Shown here in pieces: positions 46,368-53,191 of a stretch of DNA of 64,000 nt. Numbering within the stretch: position 1 is the stretch's first letter; each line of letters opens with the position of its first letter. The translations under genes were made by a program, and so were the position numbers. The notes below the pieces were generated by a model. It saw nothing but the letters and a program-made list of their open reading frames with translations. It had not been told where the DNA came from and did not search any database. The stretch lies in NCBI RefSeq assembly GCF_044324875.1, contig NZ_CP172185.1, one strand, 5' to 3'. The stretch is from Escherichia coli (GTDB lineage Bacteria > Pseudomonadota > Gammaproteobacteria > Enterobacterales > Enterobacteriaceae).

Positions 46368-48287
46368 ATGAGTAGCGCTTTTAACAACGATGGTCGGGAC
46401 ATATCTCCCTTAATTGCAACCTCCTGGGAGCGATGCATTAAGCTGATGAAACGGGAGACATGGAACGTACCACACCAGGCCCAGGGCGTGACATTTGCGT
46501 CTATTTATCGGCGTAAGAAAGCGATGCTGACGCTCGGGCAGGCTGCGCTGGAAGATGCCTGGGAATATATGGCACCGCGAGAGTGTGCGCTGTTTATCCT
46601 CGATGAAACCGCCTGCATTCTCAGCCGTAATGGCGATCCGCAAACCTTGCAGCAGCTAAGTGCACTGGGATTCAATGACGGCACGTATTGCGCCGAGGGA
46701 ATTATTGGTACTTGTGCGCTATCGTTAGCGGCTATCTCTGGTCAGGCCGTGAAAACGATGGCCGATCAACATTTCAAACAGGCACTCTGGAACTGGGCCT
46801 TTTGTGCAACGCCGTTGTTTGACAGCAAGGGCCGATTGACGGGAACAATAGCGCTGGCGTGTCCGGTTGAGCAAACTACCGCAGCTGATTTGCCGTTGAC
46901 GTTGGCAATCGCCCGAGAGGTCGGTAATTTACTGCTGACGGACAGTTTGCTCGCTGAAACTAACCGTCATTTAAATCAACTTAATGCCCTGTTAGAAAGT
47001 ATGGATGATGGCGTGATTAGCTGGGACGAGCAGGGTAATTTGCAATTTATCAACGCCCAGGCGGCGCGGGTCTTGCGCCTTGACGCGACGGCAAGTCAGG
47101 GAAGGGCAATCACTGAACTCTTAACGTTACCCGCCGTATTGCAACAAGCAATAAAACAGGCACATCCGCTCAAACACGTAGAAGCAACCTTTGAAAGTCA
47201 GCACCAGTTTATTGATGCGGTGATAACCCTTAAACCGATAATAGAAACGCAGGGAACCAGCTTTATTTTGTTGCTCCATCCTGTGGAACAGATGCGGCAG
47301 TTAATGACCAGTCAATTAGGAAAAGTCAGCCATACTTTCGCTCATATGCCACAAGAGGATCCGCAAACCCGCCGCTTGATTCATTTTGGTCGCCAGGCGG
47401 CGCGCAGTAGCTTTCCTGTCCTGCTTTGTGGAGAGGAGGGCGTGGGCAAGGCACTGCTAAGTCAGGCAATTCATAATGAAAGCGAGCGTGCAGCGGGGCC
47501 TTATATTGCCGTCAATTGTGAGTTATATGGTGATGCGGCGCTGGCGGAAGAATTTATTGGTGGCGATCGCACGGATAATGAAAATGGCCGTCTGAGTCGG
47601 CTGGAACTGGCGCACGGCGGCACGCTGTTTCTTGAAAAGATTGAATATCTGGCGGTGGAGTTACAGTCTGCTTTGCTTCAGGTTATCAAGCAGGGTGTTA
47701 TCACGCGACTGGATGCGCGGCGATTAATACCCATTGATGTCAAAGTGATTGCCACAACGACCGCGGACCTCGCAATGCTGGTGGAACAAAATCGCTTTAG
47801 TCGCCAGCTGTATTACGCGCTGCATGCATTTGAAATTACCATCCCGCCTCTGCGTATGCGGCGTGGCAGCATTCCGGCGCTGGTGAATAACAAATTACAC
47901 AGTCTTGAAAAACGCTTCTCTACGCGGCTGAAAATTGATGACGATGCCCTCGCTCGCCTGGTTTCCTGTGCATGGCCTGGCAACGATTTTGAACTTTACA
48001 GCGTCATCGAGAATCTTGCTCTGAGTAGTGATAACGGGCGCATTCGCGTCAGTGATTTACCTGAACATCTGTTTACCGAGCAGGCGACAGATGATGTCAG
48101 CGCCACCCGCCTTTCCACCAGTCTGTCATTTGCGGAAGTTGAAAAAGAGGCAATTATTAACGCAGCCCAGGTCACAGGCGGTCGCATTCAGGAAATGTCG
48201 GCTTTACTTGGAATCGGCCGCACTACGCTGTGGCGGAAAATGAAGCAACATGGCATTGATGCAGGGCAGTTTAAGCGCCGGGTATGA
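46368..48287 (+). CDS. dhaR: sigma-54-type (AAA+) transcriptional activator DhaR (639 aa)
   Basis: Recognisable sequence; divergent from dhaKLM. Confidence 0.9.
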   Translation: MSSAFNNDGRDISPLIATSWERCIKLMKRETWNVPHQAQGVTFASIYRRKKAMLTLGQAALEDAWEYMAPRECALFILDETACILSRNGDPQTLQQLSALGFNDGTYCAEGIIGTCALSLAAISGQAVKTMADQHFKQALWNWAFCATPLFDSKGRLTGTIALACPVEQTTAADLPLTLAIAREVGNLLLTDSLLAETNRHLNQLNALLESMDDGVISWDEQGNLQFINAQAARVLRLDATASQGRAITELLTLPAVLQQAIKQAHPLKHVEATFESQHQFIDAVITLKPIIETQGTSFILLLHPVEQMRQLMTSQLGKVSHTFAHMPQEDPQTRRLIHFGRQAARSSFPVLLCGEEGVGKALLSQAIHNESERAAGPYIAVNCELYGDAALAEEFIGGDRTDNENGRLSRLELAHGGTLFLEKIEYLAVELQSALLQVIKQGVITRLDARRLIPIDVKVIATTTADLAMLVEQNRFSRQLYYALHAFEITIPPLRMRRGSIPALVNNKLHSLEKRFSTRLKIDDDALARLVSCAWPGNDFELYSVIENLALSSDNGRIRVSDLPEHLFTEQATDDVSATRLSTSLSFAEVEKEAIINAAQVTGGRIQEMSALLGIGRTTLWRKMKQHGIDAGQFKRRV

Positions 48288-48386
48288 AAGACAGAAACGA
48301 TTTCTGATACATCAGAGTGATCTGTATTTCATTCCGGCGCACGCTAACAATTTTCAGCATCGTTTAAGGGCTTGTCTATCCCGCAC

Positions 48387-51254
48387 TTAAAAGCTGAATC
48401 GATATCCTCCGTTGACTTGCTTCTGATCAAAGAGGTTACCCTGCGTGTAATCCGCTTCGAGATAGAATGTGTGCTGTTTGTTATACTGTGCACTGACTCC
48501 CACGCCGTTATTCCAGCCATTACCTTTGAAACTGTACTTCTCCCGGGAGTTGTTCAACAGATATTCGGTATCCCCTGAAAACTCGCGGATAGCGCCAGTC
48601 TTCACATAGACATTCAGCTGGCTGTTGCCTGCGGTGATGTCATATCCCAGTATCATGCTGGCACGCCCCAGCAGCGATTCGTAGTGATTCAGATGTATAT
48701 TGAGGCCATTACTCGCCTTCATAGCCATCTCATTCTGGTGGCTGTATGTGAGCTGGGTTTGCGGCTCTATATAGAACCCATAACCAGTAGGGGTCAGGTT
48801 GAACCTCTGCCCGGCTTCCAGGGCGATACTCATTCCATTCGCAGTGCCGTTGGCATTAACGCCGTTGTTCTGACTGTCCAGTACGTGGAAACTATTTTTC
48901 TGGCGTGATGCTTTTACAACGAGATCGCTGTAAAAACCGCTGTGTGCCATGTAACTGGCGTACATTCCCATGTAGTCTGAACGTGCGGTACCGTCGCCTC
49001 CGCTATAGTCCGGCGATGCATGTGTTGAGCCAATATACAGACCGACATACAACGGCATTTCATCAGAGAGACGTTTATCCCCACCAAACTGGATACCGCT
49101 GTAACCCATGTCAAAGCCGCTCAGTTTGCCACTGGCAAAGGAGTCCAGGCTTCCCCCATAACTGCGCAACCAGATATTACCGTCTTTACTCTGATTTCGC
49201 AGGTCACCCATCCGTTGCATCAGCGTACGGTTTTCAACATAGTTCAATAAGTAACCGACATTGAGATAATTGCCGCCAGCATCTGCAGTCGTGGTGGGTT
49301 TAGGCGTGGGAGCGGGGGCAGGCGTAGGATCGGGGTTGACTATGGGAGGCTGAGCGGGAGCTGGTGTGGGTTCAGGATTAGGAGTCGGTTCCGGAACTGT
49401 CCCGGAAGCGTAAAGCTCCCAGTTAGTGCCATTTTTACGCACATCGTACAGATATCCCCCCAACTCAACCTGAGAAGACGCGCTGAACGAGGCCGCACCG
49501 TCAGTGGTTTTTACCACTGTCAGAACTTCATTTCCCGTTGTGGCCTCGCTGCCCTGGTTGCGGATAGCCAATACGTGATTACCAGCACTACTCCCGCTGA
49601 TATTCAATAAATCCCCTTTATTATTAACGCCATTACCCTCGCCAACAACATCAGCACGCATAATAAAGGTACTGTTACCGCTCAGGTTCTCTACGTTTAA
49701 TGTGGTAAATGTGCCGGCAGTTGACCCGTGGCTGGCAAAATCGACAGTTGAATGGCTCAGCGCCAGCGTGTCGAGATTAGAATTACTTGTTACGTTCCAG
49801 ACGCTGTTATTCATTGCAACGTCCAGTTTCCCGCCATTGACATTATCGCTGAGGGAAGAACCTGTCCAAACCGACCCAGGGTGCATATCCAGATTGATTA
49901 GCCCACCTTTGGAAAGAACGCTACCGTTGATAAGCATACGACCCGAGGCGTTGATGCGGCTGGCGGCATAACCATCGTCATGTTGCGTTGCGATGGCCAT
50001 CTGGTCGGGTGTACTCATATCAATGACCAGATCGCTCGTGAGGTCGATCTGGCTGTTGGTCATGGCATAAATTCCCCTGGCTCCTGCCGCGCCGGTGATA
50101 GCCAAACTGTCTCCGGTTATTCTACCGCCGCTGAGCGCCCACAAACCCAGCGCCAGACTGCCATTACGATCAACCGTAATATCGGTATTTTGCATGTTGA
50201 CAACAGCCGTTGCCGTCTGGGCTGAGGCACCATAAGAACCGCTGGAAAAGATGCTGTTTCGTTGCGCTGCCGTGCCAGAAAAATTGATTGTCGCGTCTGA
50301 ACCACTGGTTACGAGGCCACCGCCCTGCGCGGAAGAAATATGGCTATCAGCACCGATAGTGGTTGTACCACCACGAACTTCGACGCCATTTGCCGCGGCT
50401 CCAGTTACATCAACAGTGAGTGCATTCGCGCTCACCTGGCCAAAGCTCCAGAGGCCGTGTGCATTATCGCCATTGGTTTTAATGGTACTGTTTGTTCCGA
50501 GATCGACAACAGAGTTTTTCTGTACGTTTATCCCCATGGCGCTGTAGCCCTGAACATCGATTGTCAGGTCTGTCGCCGTAAAACGCGCAGCACCATTGGC
50601 GTTATTGCCGTTGAGACCACCGATATAAACACCTGTACTTCCATCGGTCTTGATTTTACTTCCGCTTCCAAGATCGACACTGGTGCCATAGTCATTGATT
50701 GTTAGGCCTATACCGTTCGAGTTTTCAATGGTGAATTGAGTGGCTGTTAGTGTTGAGCTATGTCTAATAATGATGCCGTCATCGTTACTCTTAATGGTGC
50801 TGCCTGTGCCTAAGTCAGCATGGGTATAGTCACCAATTAAATTAATGCCGATGGCAGAGGTTTGACCAACAACATCTACTGTAAGTCGGTTAGCTGTCAG
50901 GGAGCTGTTCTTGCCCTGAATAATGATTCCCTTTGCATATCCAGAGGCGTCGTTGACATTGACGGTGACATCATTACCCAGGTTGATATTGCCAGGCGTG
51001 TTTCCTGCTGGGGTCATTACACCATAGAGGTTTCCTGATGGATCGGCGGTATCTCCTGTAATTCTGTCACCATCATTAATAGTAATATTGGTGCCATTTT
51101 GACTTCCTAAATCAGCAGCTATCAGCAGGGGGGAAAAGATAATTGCATTCAAACCAATAGCGCCATATTTTATCAGTTGAATGGAGGGCGAACGGATTTT
51201 TAATTCAGCGAGACGATCGGCTTTGGTATTCCCATTGTGTTGTTTGATGCCCAT
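48387..51254 (-). CDS. ycgV: autotransporter adhesin YcgV (955 aa), apparently intact
   Basis: Signal peptide, repetitive passenger, Pro-rich linker, C-terminal beta-barrel ending ...VNGGYRFSF. Confidence 0.85.
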   Translation of the reverse strand: MGIKQHNGNTKADRLAELKIRSPSIQLIKYGAIGLNAIIFSPLLIAADLGSQNGTNITINDGDRITGDTADPSGNLYGVMTPAGNTPGNINLGNDVTVNVNDASGYAKGIIIQGKNSSLTANRLTVDVVGQTSAIGINLIGDYTHADLGTGSTIKSNDDGIIIRHSSTLTATQFTIENSNGIGLTINDYGTSVDLGSGSKIKTDGSTGVYIGGLNGNNANGAARFTATDLTIDVQGYSAMGINVQKNSVVDLGTNSTIKTNGDNAHGLWSFGQVSANALTVDVTGAAANGVEVRGGTTTIGADSHISSAQGGGLVTSGSDATINFSGTAAQRNSIFSSGSYGASAQTATAVVNMQNTDITVDRNGSLALGLWALSGGRITGDSLAITGAAGARGIYAMTNSQIDLTSDLVIDMSTPDQMAIATQHDDGYAASRINASGRMLINGSVLSKGGLINLDMHPGSVWTGSSLSDNVNGGKLDVAMNNSVWNVTSNSNLDTLALSHSTVDFASHGSTAGTFTTLNVENLSGNSTFIMRADVVGEGNGVNNKGDLLNISGSSAGNHVLAIRNQGSEATTGNEVLTVVKTTDGAASFSASSQVELGGYLYDVRKNGTNWELYASGTVPEPTPNPEPTPAPAQPPIVNPDPTPAPAPTPKPTTTADAGGNYLNVGYLLNYVENRTLMQRMGDLRNQSKDGNIWLRSYGGSLDSFASGKLSGFDMGYSGIQFGGDKRLSDEMPLYVGLYIGSTHASPDYSGGDGTARSDYMGMYASYMAHSGFYSDLVVKASRQKNSFHVLDSQNNGVNANGTANGMSIALEAGQRFNLTPTGYGFYIEPQTQLTYSHQNEMAMKASNGLNIHLNHYESLLGRASMILGYDITAGNSQLNVYVKTGAIREFSGDTEYLLNNSREKYSFKGNGWNNGVGVSAQYNKQHTFYLEADYTQGNLFDQKQVNGGYRFSF

Positions 51255-52011
51255 ACCACTCCTATATAGTACCCAGGCTATGGGTCTATGGATTTTGTCA
51301 TTTTGTTTAAGTCAATGAATAATATCCTCTTATCATCATGATATTTGTATGGTGCTATCATGATGAGCTGCTCTGAGAATAATTCTCTATTACCGGGCAA
51401 AATCAGGAACACAGGAATTAATATATATTTAACATCCCCCTTACAAAGGTGAGTTTAGATCGAGTTATTCCCTAAGTTGTCGTTACTTATTCCAATTCGT
51501 TACAATGAATATGACAAAAACATTACAACAAACAGCGGTTAAATAATTTGGTGAATATTTTTGGTAATAATCCTAATTGGTTATGGGATTTTCGCTTGAT
51601 GTATCTGCATAACAAAAACAATATGAGCCATTTTTGCATTACTAATAAGAAAAAGCAAAAAACATCGATATTCATTTTTGATCAATGGATTTTCTGGCAT
51701 ATCGTTATTATCGTGATACTGGTTATCATTTTCATCTTGCCAGGATCGCACGTAATCACGTTATTCGGGGATTTTATCTGCGGGATATTACCCTTCAGGT
51801 AAGTCCTTTTCTCGCCAGCATATTGGAGCGTGATCAATATTGATCAGCTGTAAAAAGGTGTCTGATGTGCAGTGGAACACAAACTTACGTTATCTCATTG
51901 CTAATGAGATATCCCTCATCTGAACACTTATGTCTTTAATTATTCTCGTGGTTCACTATAGGCAATAAGCACAAAAGTGTAGGATGTTATAAGAATGGTT
52001 AGGACTCGGTG

Positions 52012-52053
52012 AAATGAAAAATCCACGCAATTGCGTGGATTTTATATACTTTT
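52012..52053. terminator. bidirectional rho-independent terminator downstream of ychF
   Basis: Perfect 20-bp palindrome atccacgcaattgcgtggat flanked by A-run and TTTTATATACTTTT. Confidence 0.7.
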
Positions 52054-52099
52054 GCGCTCTTCATGAGATTTAGCGAAACCTCTTGAGACAACAAATTAA

Positions 52100-53191
52100 T
52101 TAGACGTTGAACAGGAAGTTCATTACATCGCCATCTTTAACGATGTAATCTTTGCCTTCTGCACGCATTTTGCCTGCTTCTTTCGCGCCTTGTTCACCTT
52201 TGTAAGTGATGAAATCTTCAAACGAGATGGTTTGTGCACGGATAAAGCCTTTTTCAAAATCAGTATGGATTTTGCCAGCGGCCTGCGGCGCGGTTGCACC
52301 AACCGGAATGGTCCATGCACGTACTTCTTTCACCCCAGCGGTGAAGTAAGTTTGCAGGTTCAGCAGCTTATAACCGGCACGGATCACACGGTTCAGGCCC
52401 GGCTCTTCCAGCCCAAGCTCCTGCATAAACTCGTCACGTTCTTCGTCGTCCAGTTCGGCAATGTCTGCTTCAACAGCAGCACAAACCGGAACCACAACAG
52501 AACCTTCTTTCGCCGCGATTTCACGCACCTGGTCAAGATACGGGTTGTTTTCAAAACCGTCTTCGTTGACGTTGGCGATGTACATTGTTGGTTTCAGCGT
52601 CAGGAAGCTCAGGTAACGAATAGCCGCTTTCTCTTCAGCGCTTAAATCCAGCGCGCGCAGCATACCTGCGTTTTCCAGCTGCGGCAGGCATTTTTCCAGT
52701 ACCGCCAGCTCGGCTTTCGCGTCTTTATCGCCACCTTTGGCTTTCTTCTGTACGCGATGAATCGCACGTTCGCAGGTGTCGAGGTCTGCCAGCGCCAGTT
52801 CGGTGTTGATAACTTCAATATCATCCGCCGGGTTAACTTTGCCGGAAACGTGAATGATGTTGTCATTTTCAAAGCAGCGAACAACGTGACCGATCGCTTC
52901 AGTTTCACGGATGTTGGTCAGGAACTGGTTACCCAGACCTTCGCCTTTCGATGCGCCTTTTACCAGACCGGCGATATCGACAAATTCCATGGTCGTGGGA
53001 AGCGTACGCTGCGGTTTTACGATTTCAGCCAGTTGATCCAGGCGAGGGTCAGGCATTGGTACGACGCCTGTGTTCGGCTCGATGGTACAGAATGGAAAGT
53101 TGGCCGCTTCAATACCGGCTTTGGTCAGCGCGTTGAACAGGGTAGATTTCCCGACGTTGGGCAAACCGACGATACCGCATTTGAATCCCAT
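52100..53191 (-). CDS. ychF: ribosome-binding ATPase YchF (363 aa)
   Basis: G-motif GLPNVGKST; recognisable sequence. Confidence 0.95.

Follow-up and report, generated by a model that had tools for sequence, protein, structure and literature searches.

The gene ycgV of Escherichia coli was analysed in a window of 64,000 nucleotides (nt; NCBI RefSeq assembly GCF_044324875.1, contig NZ_CP172185.1), where it encodes an autotransporter with a proline- and threonine-rich segment of 36 amino acids (aa) between its passenger and its beta-barrel. This segment is probably a sequence-tolerant, extended spacer whose length is altered by slippage or unequal recombination, and not a switch. The biology is ordinary: a Pro/Thr low-complexity autotransporter spacer with a modest, mostly biallelic in-frame polymorphism that comes from its own degenerate 18-nt repeats. 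A sequence-only reading of the window had reported a Pro/Thr-rich linker at 49290-49400, placed it between passenger and beta-domain, described its DNA as a short imperfect repeat and proposed that its length may vary between strains. The peptide is present, with limits that were off by a few bases (Table 1), and its length does vary, with four in-frame forms of 22, 30, 36 and 42 aa across E. coli genomes. The variation consists essentially of two common lengths and very rare variants, and the locus is not hypervariable.

Prolines account for 16 of the 36 residues of the spacer, compared with 11 of 919 (1.2%) elsewhere in YcgV (binomial p ~7e-16). They alternate with other residues (P.P.P.P.P.P.P..PP...P.P.P.P.P.P.P), and the segment is parsed into hexapeptides of the form P-x-P-T-P-x as PEPTPN, PEPTPA, PAQPPIVN, PDPTPA, PAPTPK and PTTT. 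At the DNA level no other 108-nt stretch in the window is as strand-skewed as the spacer, which has 51% G on the plus (template) strand. No canonical G-quadruplex (G4) motif with loops of at most 7 nt is present in the spacer. A relaxed G4-like motif (loops ≤12 nt) is located at 49332-49370 and is one of only three in the window; loops of up to 15 nt add a further relaxed motif in the spacer, at 49296-49335.

The location of the spacer between passenger and beta-domain is borne out by Pfam domains, by the limits of structure matches and by the coil in an AlphaFold2 model. YcgV has a C-terminal outer-membrane barrel, an alpha-helical linker before the barrel and a beta-helical passenger with a pertactin-like end, as expected of a type Va autotransporter. 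The match to pertactin 1DAB (the P.69 passenger; expect value E=1.5e-11) stops at about residue 616, which corresponds to the C-terminal end of 1DAB. Matches to the beta-domains of BrkA, EspP and Hbp start at residues 659-678 (BrkA 674; EspP 666-678) and include the N-terminal helix; BrkA 3QQ2 matches the barrel with E=1.7e-23, and EspP barrels were matched too. The AlphaFold2 model covers residues 469-955 and was built from a 25-sequence alignment (mean predicted local distance difference test score, pLDDT, 84.9; predicted template modelling score, pTM, 0.79), its passenger part comprising only the last ~150 residues. In the model the last passenger strand ends at residue 616, coil extends over residues 617-654, a helix covers residues 655-685, and the barrel strands are of high confidence from residue 694 to the C-terminus. 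Inside the model, pLDDT stays <50 over a long stretch only at residues 621-647. From the strand end, the coil, the helix and the domain matches, the spacer tethers the passenger to the plug helix. It is of low complexity and rich in proline, and it is probably extended or polyproline-II-like and disordered otherwise. It would emerge at the cell surface and, according to the allele, would keep passenger and barrel ~7-13 nm apart.

Table 1. Features of ycgV and its surroundings in the window (positions in nt; residues in aa).
Feature	Position	Strand	Description
Pro/Thr-rich spacer	49287-49394	-	aa 621-656, PEPTPNPEPTPAPAQPPIVNPDPTPAPAPTPKPTTT; pLDDT <50, without secondary structure
Spacer N-terminal half	49335-49394	-	aa 621-640, PEPTPNPEPTPAPAQPPIVN
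18-nt unit CCCGATCCTACGCCTGCC	49317-49334	-	PDPTPA, aa 641-646; once in the window, twice in 42-aa alleles
Unit PAPTPK	49299-49316	-	aa 647-652; missing from 30-aa alleles
PTTT spacer end	49287-49298	-	aa 653-656; TTT conserved across the family, runs into the plug helix
Two imperfect 28-nt direct repeats	49310-49337 and 49352-49379	+	42 nt apart; substrate of the 42-nt deletion leading to the 22-aa allele
ycgV coding sequence	48387-51254	-	955 aa, type Va autotransporter adhesin; open reading frame (ORF) list, translation, Pfam, RefSeq annotation
Pertactin-like passenger C-terminal domain	49410-49775	-	aa 494-615, PF03212, E=1.9e-37; directly upstream of the spacer
Alpha-helical plug segment into the barrel	49200-49292	-	aa 655-685; model helices aa 655-661 and 663-685
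Beta-barrel translocator domain	48450-49175	-	aa 694-935, PF03797, E=3.8e-37; strands continue to the C-terminus
ychF	52100-53191	-	upstream of ycgV

Length alleles were surveyed with a 411-nt query over the spacer against 5,426 complete E. coli genomes, of which 3,937 are carriers at ≥80% coverage. In an evenly spaced sample, 40 of 40 hits with at least 95% identity span 411 nt, and 19 of 19 hits in the band of 90-95% identity, which comprises 1,294 records, span 429 nt. Seventeen loci were aligned between conserved anchors, and their tract indels are all in frame and all within the spacer. The comparison of linker lengths across E. coli genomes that the sequence-only reading had called for did not return one length everywhere. 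The census (Table 2) was made from junction-specific counts by megablast with 45-47-nt queries and from ~20 sequenced examples, and alleles present in few genomes may be missed. About 66% of the carriers (~2,600 genomes) have the 36-aa form and ~34% the 42-aa form; other lengths reach ~0.1% or less, and the census sums to ~3,937. All full-length E. coli alleles that were sampled have one and the same peptide in the N-terminal half of the spacer. Genes of 2886 nt are mostly 97.3-97.8% identical to the gene of the window, and those of 2868 nt are 98.2-99.9% identical to it. The length class thus follows whole-gene divergence, which indicates that the two common lengths are old haplotypes and not the product of rapid switching. 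No description of the spacer polymorphism was found in the searchable literature mentioning ycgV, which leaves out subscription papers (the original adhesin study, for example).

Table 2. Spacer alleles of ycgV in E. coli and their counts among complete genomes.
Length (aa)	Spacer peptide	Found in	Genomes
36	...NPDPTPE.PAPTPK.PTTT	K-12 (L001)	2,333 K-12-like; 2,222 exact, the rest including window-like near matches
36	...PDPTPA.PAPTPK	window, L009, L010	143 window-like
36	CCAGCC variant of the window type		~31
36	...PDPTPN.PTPTPK	L014-L016	at most 217 L014-like (≥99% identity band; an upper bound, the query having a 30-nt stretch common to all alleles)
36	...PDPTPE.PDPTPE.PTTT	L011	1
42	...PDPTPE.PDPTPN.PTPTPK	O55:H7, O157:H7, L003	1,324 for all two-unit (42-aa) alleles
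42	...PDPTPE.PDPTPT.PTPTPK	L008, L018	
42	...PDPTPE.PDPTPA.PAPTPK	L017	~103 L017-like, among the 1,324
30	...PDPTPE.PTTT	L005, L012	2 with the 30-aa junction
22	PEPTPNPEPTPAPAPTPKPTTT	L004 (strain KK19-02)	1 strain (two equal-length records, probably one strain)

The description of the DNA as a short imperfect repeat holds only weakly for the window's allele. An imperfect 18-nt periodicity is present, but it is weak, and Tandem Repeats Finder returned 0 arrays at score ≥30 over the whole of ycgV. A repeat search found three 28-nt copies with 64-75% identity, at spacings of 18 and 42 nt. The self-identity of the spacer DNA is modestly above that of codon-shuffled controls (z of 2.9 at lag 6, 2.4 at lag 18, 2.8 at lag 42 and 3.0 at lag 60). 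Given the empty Tandem Repeats Finder result, the repeat in the window's allele is defined by peptide periodicity, repeat search and lag statistics, and it is more evident as peptide than as DNA. The long (42-aa) alleles contain a clear two-copy 18-nt tandem.

All length-change breakpoints in the aligned alleles fall in direct repeats. The 42-aa alleles carry the tandem 18-nt pair CCCGATCCTACGCCTGAA / CCCGATCCTACGCCTAAC, whose copies are identical at 16 of 18 positions in the common long allele and at all of them in L011; the long alleles read CCCGATCCTACGCCTGAA CCCGATCCTACGCCT(AAC/ACC/GCC). In the 30-aa alleles ACGCCTGAACCC is joined to AC(G/A)CCTAAACCC. The repeats ACGCCTGAACCC / ACGCCTAAACCC bound the loss of 18 nt (the PAPTPK unit), by which L012 differs from the K-12 type, and ACGCCTGAACCC / ACACCTAAACCC bound the loss of 36 nt, by which L005 differs from the long type. 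The 22-aa allele of strain KK19-02 is a 42-nt deletion between two of the 28-nt copies with the crossover inside CCAGC, and it is without residues 635-640 at the end of the N-terminal half and the first eight residues of the variable half. Its likely parent, judged by sequence, is the CCAGCC variant of 36 aa. Two types (H103 and H123) that had been considered as further deletion alleles were rejected, being this same 36-aa variant with CCAGCC replacing CCTGCC.

One-copy and two-copy forms are found on three backgrounds. They are PDPTPN.PTPTPK and PDPTPE.PDPTPN.PTPTPK on the first, PDPTPA.PAPTPK or PDPTPE.PAPTPK and PDPTPE.PDPTPA.PAPTPK on the second, and PDPTPE.PTTT and PDPTPE.PDPTPE.PTTT on the third. 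The same 30-aa junction also occurs on two backgrounds of flanking single-nucleotide polymorphisms (SNPs), the K-12 type in L012 and the long type in L005. Length events have therefore recurred, though rarely. The window allele differs from that of K-12 by E646A (GAA to GCC). It may be an L017-like two-unit allele minus 18 nt in another register, which would be simpler than two adjacent point mutations; L017 differs from both the window and K-12 at one further synonymous site.

The segment corresponding to the spacer was also compared in 24 homologues (Citrobacter, Morganella, Pragia, Gilliamella and metagenomes), which are 28-97% identical over the C-terminal 487 aa. Between NWELY and ADAG it measures 8-62 residues, contains 0-40% proline and is unrelated in sequence beyond close relatives; the terminal (I/L)T(T/S)(T/S) is its only conserved part, in most homologues. 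Such variability in both length and sequence across the family is the mark of a tolerant spacer. The YcgV-like autotransporters of Citrobacter, Morganella, Pragia and other Enterobacterales resemble YcgV in having a low-complexity segment between NWELY and TTT-ADAG, with flanking domains 41-86% identical. Unlike E. coli YcgV, some proteins of other genera are nearly proline-free in this segment, and only the Escherichia lineage has the 18-nt PDPTPx unit. Several homologues have tandem repeats of their own at the same position, for example (PDEKPTP)n x3-4 in P0024 and (PANEPAAT)n x3 in P0019. The family sequences suggest that repeat birth at this inter-domain site may be a general property of the family. 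Runs of GPET/DPGT were seen at the inter-domain position in other Enterobacterales homologues (P0024, P0019 and P0014 were examined).

The spacer DNA would accordingly be described as a degenerate array of 18-nt P-x-P-T-P-x units. Slipped-strand mispairing or unequal recombination between the units may occasionally add or remove 18, 36 or 42 nt in frame, and the spacer length would shift without turning ycgV off. The forms of 36 and 42 aa would have become common and would mostly be inherited along with gene-wide haplotypes. Such length changes are presumably tolerated, and may be nearly neutral, because function appears to need a spacer and not one exact sequence. Several points weigh against this account. 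Disorder is read from low pLDDT, which is no more than a proxy. Neutrality is questionable: the gene ycgV has been flagged for positive selection in genome scans (PMC9110714), and the invariant peptide of the N-terminal half hints at some constraint. The census covers junction counts and ~20 sequenced examples, among which rare alleles may be missed, and each event may have been a duplication or a deletion.

Errors of assembly or sequencing are a hardly credible source of the length differences. G/C-skewed low-complexity sequence can be error-prone, but independent complete genomes share identical alleles in their hundreds to thousands, the reading frame is always kept, and the alleles co-vary with flanking SNP haplotypes. 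It is also very improbable that the spacer is a fast-mutating simple-sequence contingency locus that switches ycgV on and off by phase variation. Its DNA is repetitive, C-rich or G-rich and part of the gene for a surface adhesin, and ycgV shares with contingency loci a repeat-mediated length change within a gene for a surface protein; frameshifted copies of ycgV do exist. However, the gene has no perfect tandem array, the unit is an imperfect one of 18 nt, the tract indels are all multiples of 3, events are rare with only two lengths common, and on/off switching is not seen. The frameshifts map elsewhere than the spacer, with lesions outside the tract in O157:H7 FRIK2069, strain 98208 and strain 600055, and the phase-variation reading was rejected. 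In one lesion, at codons 43-46 (window 51119-51128, minus strand), the 10 nt CTGCTGATAG are deleted between direct repeats of CTGCTGAT, with a frameshift in the signal-peptide region. This deletion (L006, L008, L018) was found in 18 of the 5,426 genomes, 7 of them O157:H7 and 11 others, on two backgrounds one SNP apart; the window is intact at this site. In strain 600055 (L007) the frameshift results from a 16-nt tandem duplication of CCTGCGAAATCAGAGT at window ~49188-49203 (minus strand), a short way downstream of the spacer and within the plug-helix region.

The spacer might instead be an exposed, immunodominant variable epitope under host immune selection, as proposed for R1/R2 of Bordetella pertactin. 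It occupies the same position as pertactin R2, right after the region matching the end of the 1DAB passenger, and pertactin alleles vary in the number of such repeats (PMC8931430). The listing of ycgV among positively selected E. coli genes (PMC9110714) and the concentration of substitutions at the x positions of the variable units (E, A, N, T, D) point the same way. This explanation is nevertheless considered unlikely: only two lengths are common and ~nine peptide alleles occur in ~3,900 genomes, the N-terminal half does not vary, and the length class goes with the gene-wide haplotype. The positive-selection scans are gene-level and not localised to the spacer, and no evidence was found for expression or immune recognition of YcgV in vivo. 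Similarly doubtful is a tuned length, by which the stalk would be selected so that the passenger clears the lipopolysaccharide (LPS) O-antigen or capsule of the strain. Each unit would add ~1.9 nm between alleles if extended, both lengths are at high frequency, and some events are recurrent. Yet the 36-aa class occurs alike in derivatives of K-12 and BL21 and in O-typed strains (O103:H2, for instance), lengths of 8-62 aa are tolerated across the family, and typical O-antigen layers are large compared with the difference between spacers of 36 and 42 aa. A more specific form, an adaptive setting of reach in which the alleles of 22, 30, 36 and 42 aa would be kept or regenerated to match the thickness of O-antigen or capsule, with the 18-nt repeat as a slow in-frame tuning knob, is judged improbable. 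More speculatively still, the template strand might promote slippage through its extreme G skew, with its relaxed G4-like motifs. A role of spacer length in antigenicity or LPS clearance is conceivable, and nothing in the present data supports it.

Among named systems, the tolerant, length-variable spacer of YcgV is closest to the regions of proline-rich repeats in Bordetella pertactin. Both proteins are autotransporters with a pertactin-type passenger end and a proline-rich tract directly after the beta-helix, at residues 621-656 in YcgV; the pertactin crystal structure leaves its repeat unresolved, and the YcgV spacer is of low confidence in the model. The pertactin repeat units are short and of the PQP/GGxxP type, whereas YcgV has an imperfect 6-aa P-x-P-T-P-x unit and only two common lengths. 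Repeat number varies between alleles in pertactin (PMC8931430) and in YcgV, where one or two PDPTPx units and rarer deletions are found. Unlike pertactin, YcgV has no known immune role or vaccine-driven shift, and cleavage of its passenger is not established. Alternating X-Pro sequence also occurs in rigid spacers such as that of TonB, with its (Glu-Pro)n(Lys-Pro)n region, and that of Streptococcus mutans P1, with its proline-rich stalk; the P1 analogy is drawn in PMC8931430. In these spacers, as probably in YcgV, the sequence would make an extended, polyproline-II-like rod and so keep two functional domains at a set distance. TonB sits in another compartment, the periplasm, and the analogy is one of mechanism only, without homology to YcgV.

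What emerges is that the stalk of YcgV, a cryptic E. coli adhesin, is naturally polymorphic in length with the reading frame preserved, which in itself matters little. Spacer length is usable as a minor typing marker, and caution is advised in selection scans, where spacer indels can inflate apparent positive selection in ycgV. For surface-display engineering with YcgV, 22-42 residues (8-62 across the family) are tolerated at the spacer position. New biology would follow only if spacer length were truly tuned to the polysaccharide layer of the cell surface. YcgV was described as a biofilm-promoting, adhesin-like autotransporter without a published structure (PMC9289746). A derivative without residues 1-621, which starts at residue 622 and comprises spacer and beta-domain, was reported to be a functional surface-display anchor when given an exogenous signal peptide (PMC13101318). 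SignalP 6.0 gave no reliable signal peptide call for YcgV, and display required an added one (PMC13101318, 2026). The N-terminus of YcgV (window 51113-51254) is long and atypical, MGIKQHNGNTKADRLAELKIRSPSIQLIKYGAIGLNAIIFSPLLIAADLG...

Between ~1,300 and ~1,490 of the 5,426 complete E. coli genomes are without ycgV or carry remnants annotated as 'pertactin-like passenger domain-containing protein' (H39, H40, H100). According to a preprint, ycgV was lost by phylogroup B2 (bioRxiv 10.1101/486399). An IS1 insertion is present in the ycgV of one strain (H26), and eight matching places are plasmid-borne. RefSeq genomes that are 99.9% identical over the gene carry the name ycgV, and in such a genome it is flanked by ychF and dhaR. 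A plus-strand ORF at 48905-49264 was rejected as a gene, being a mechanical ORF antisense within ycgV that stops before the tract. A scan of 48000-52000 on both strands with Rfam yielded no RNA family. The non-coding gap between ycgV and ychF is unusually long, with ~845 nt (window 51255-52099), and is present in strain GMF054 too.

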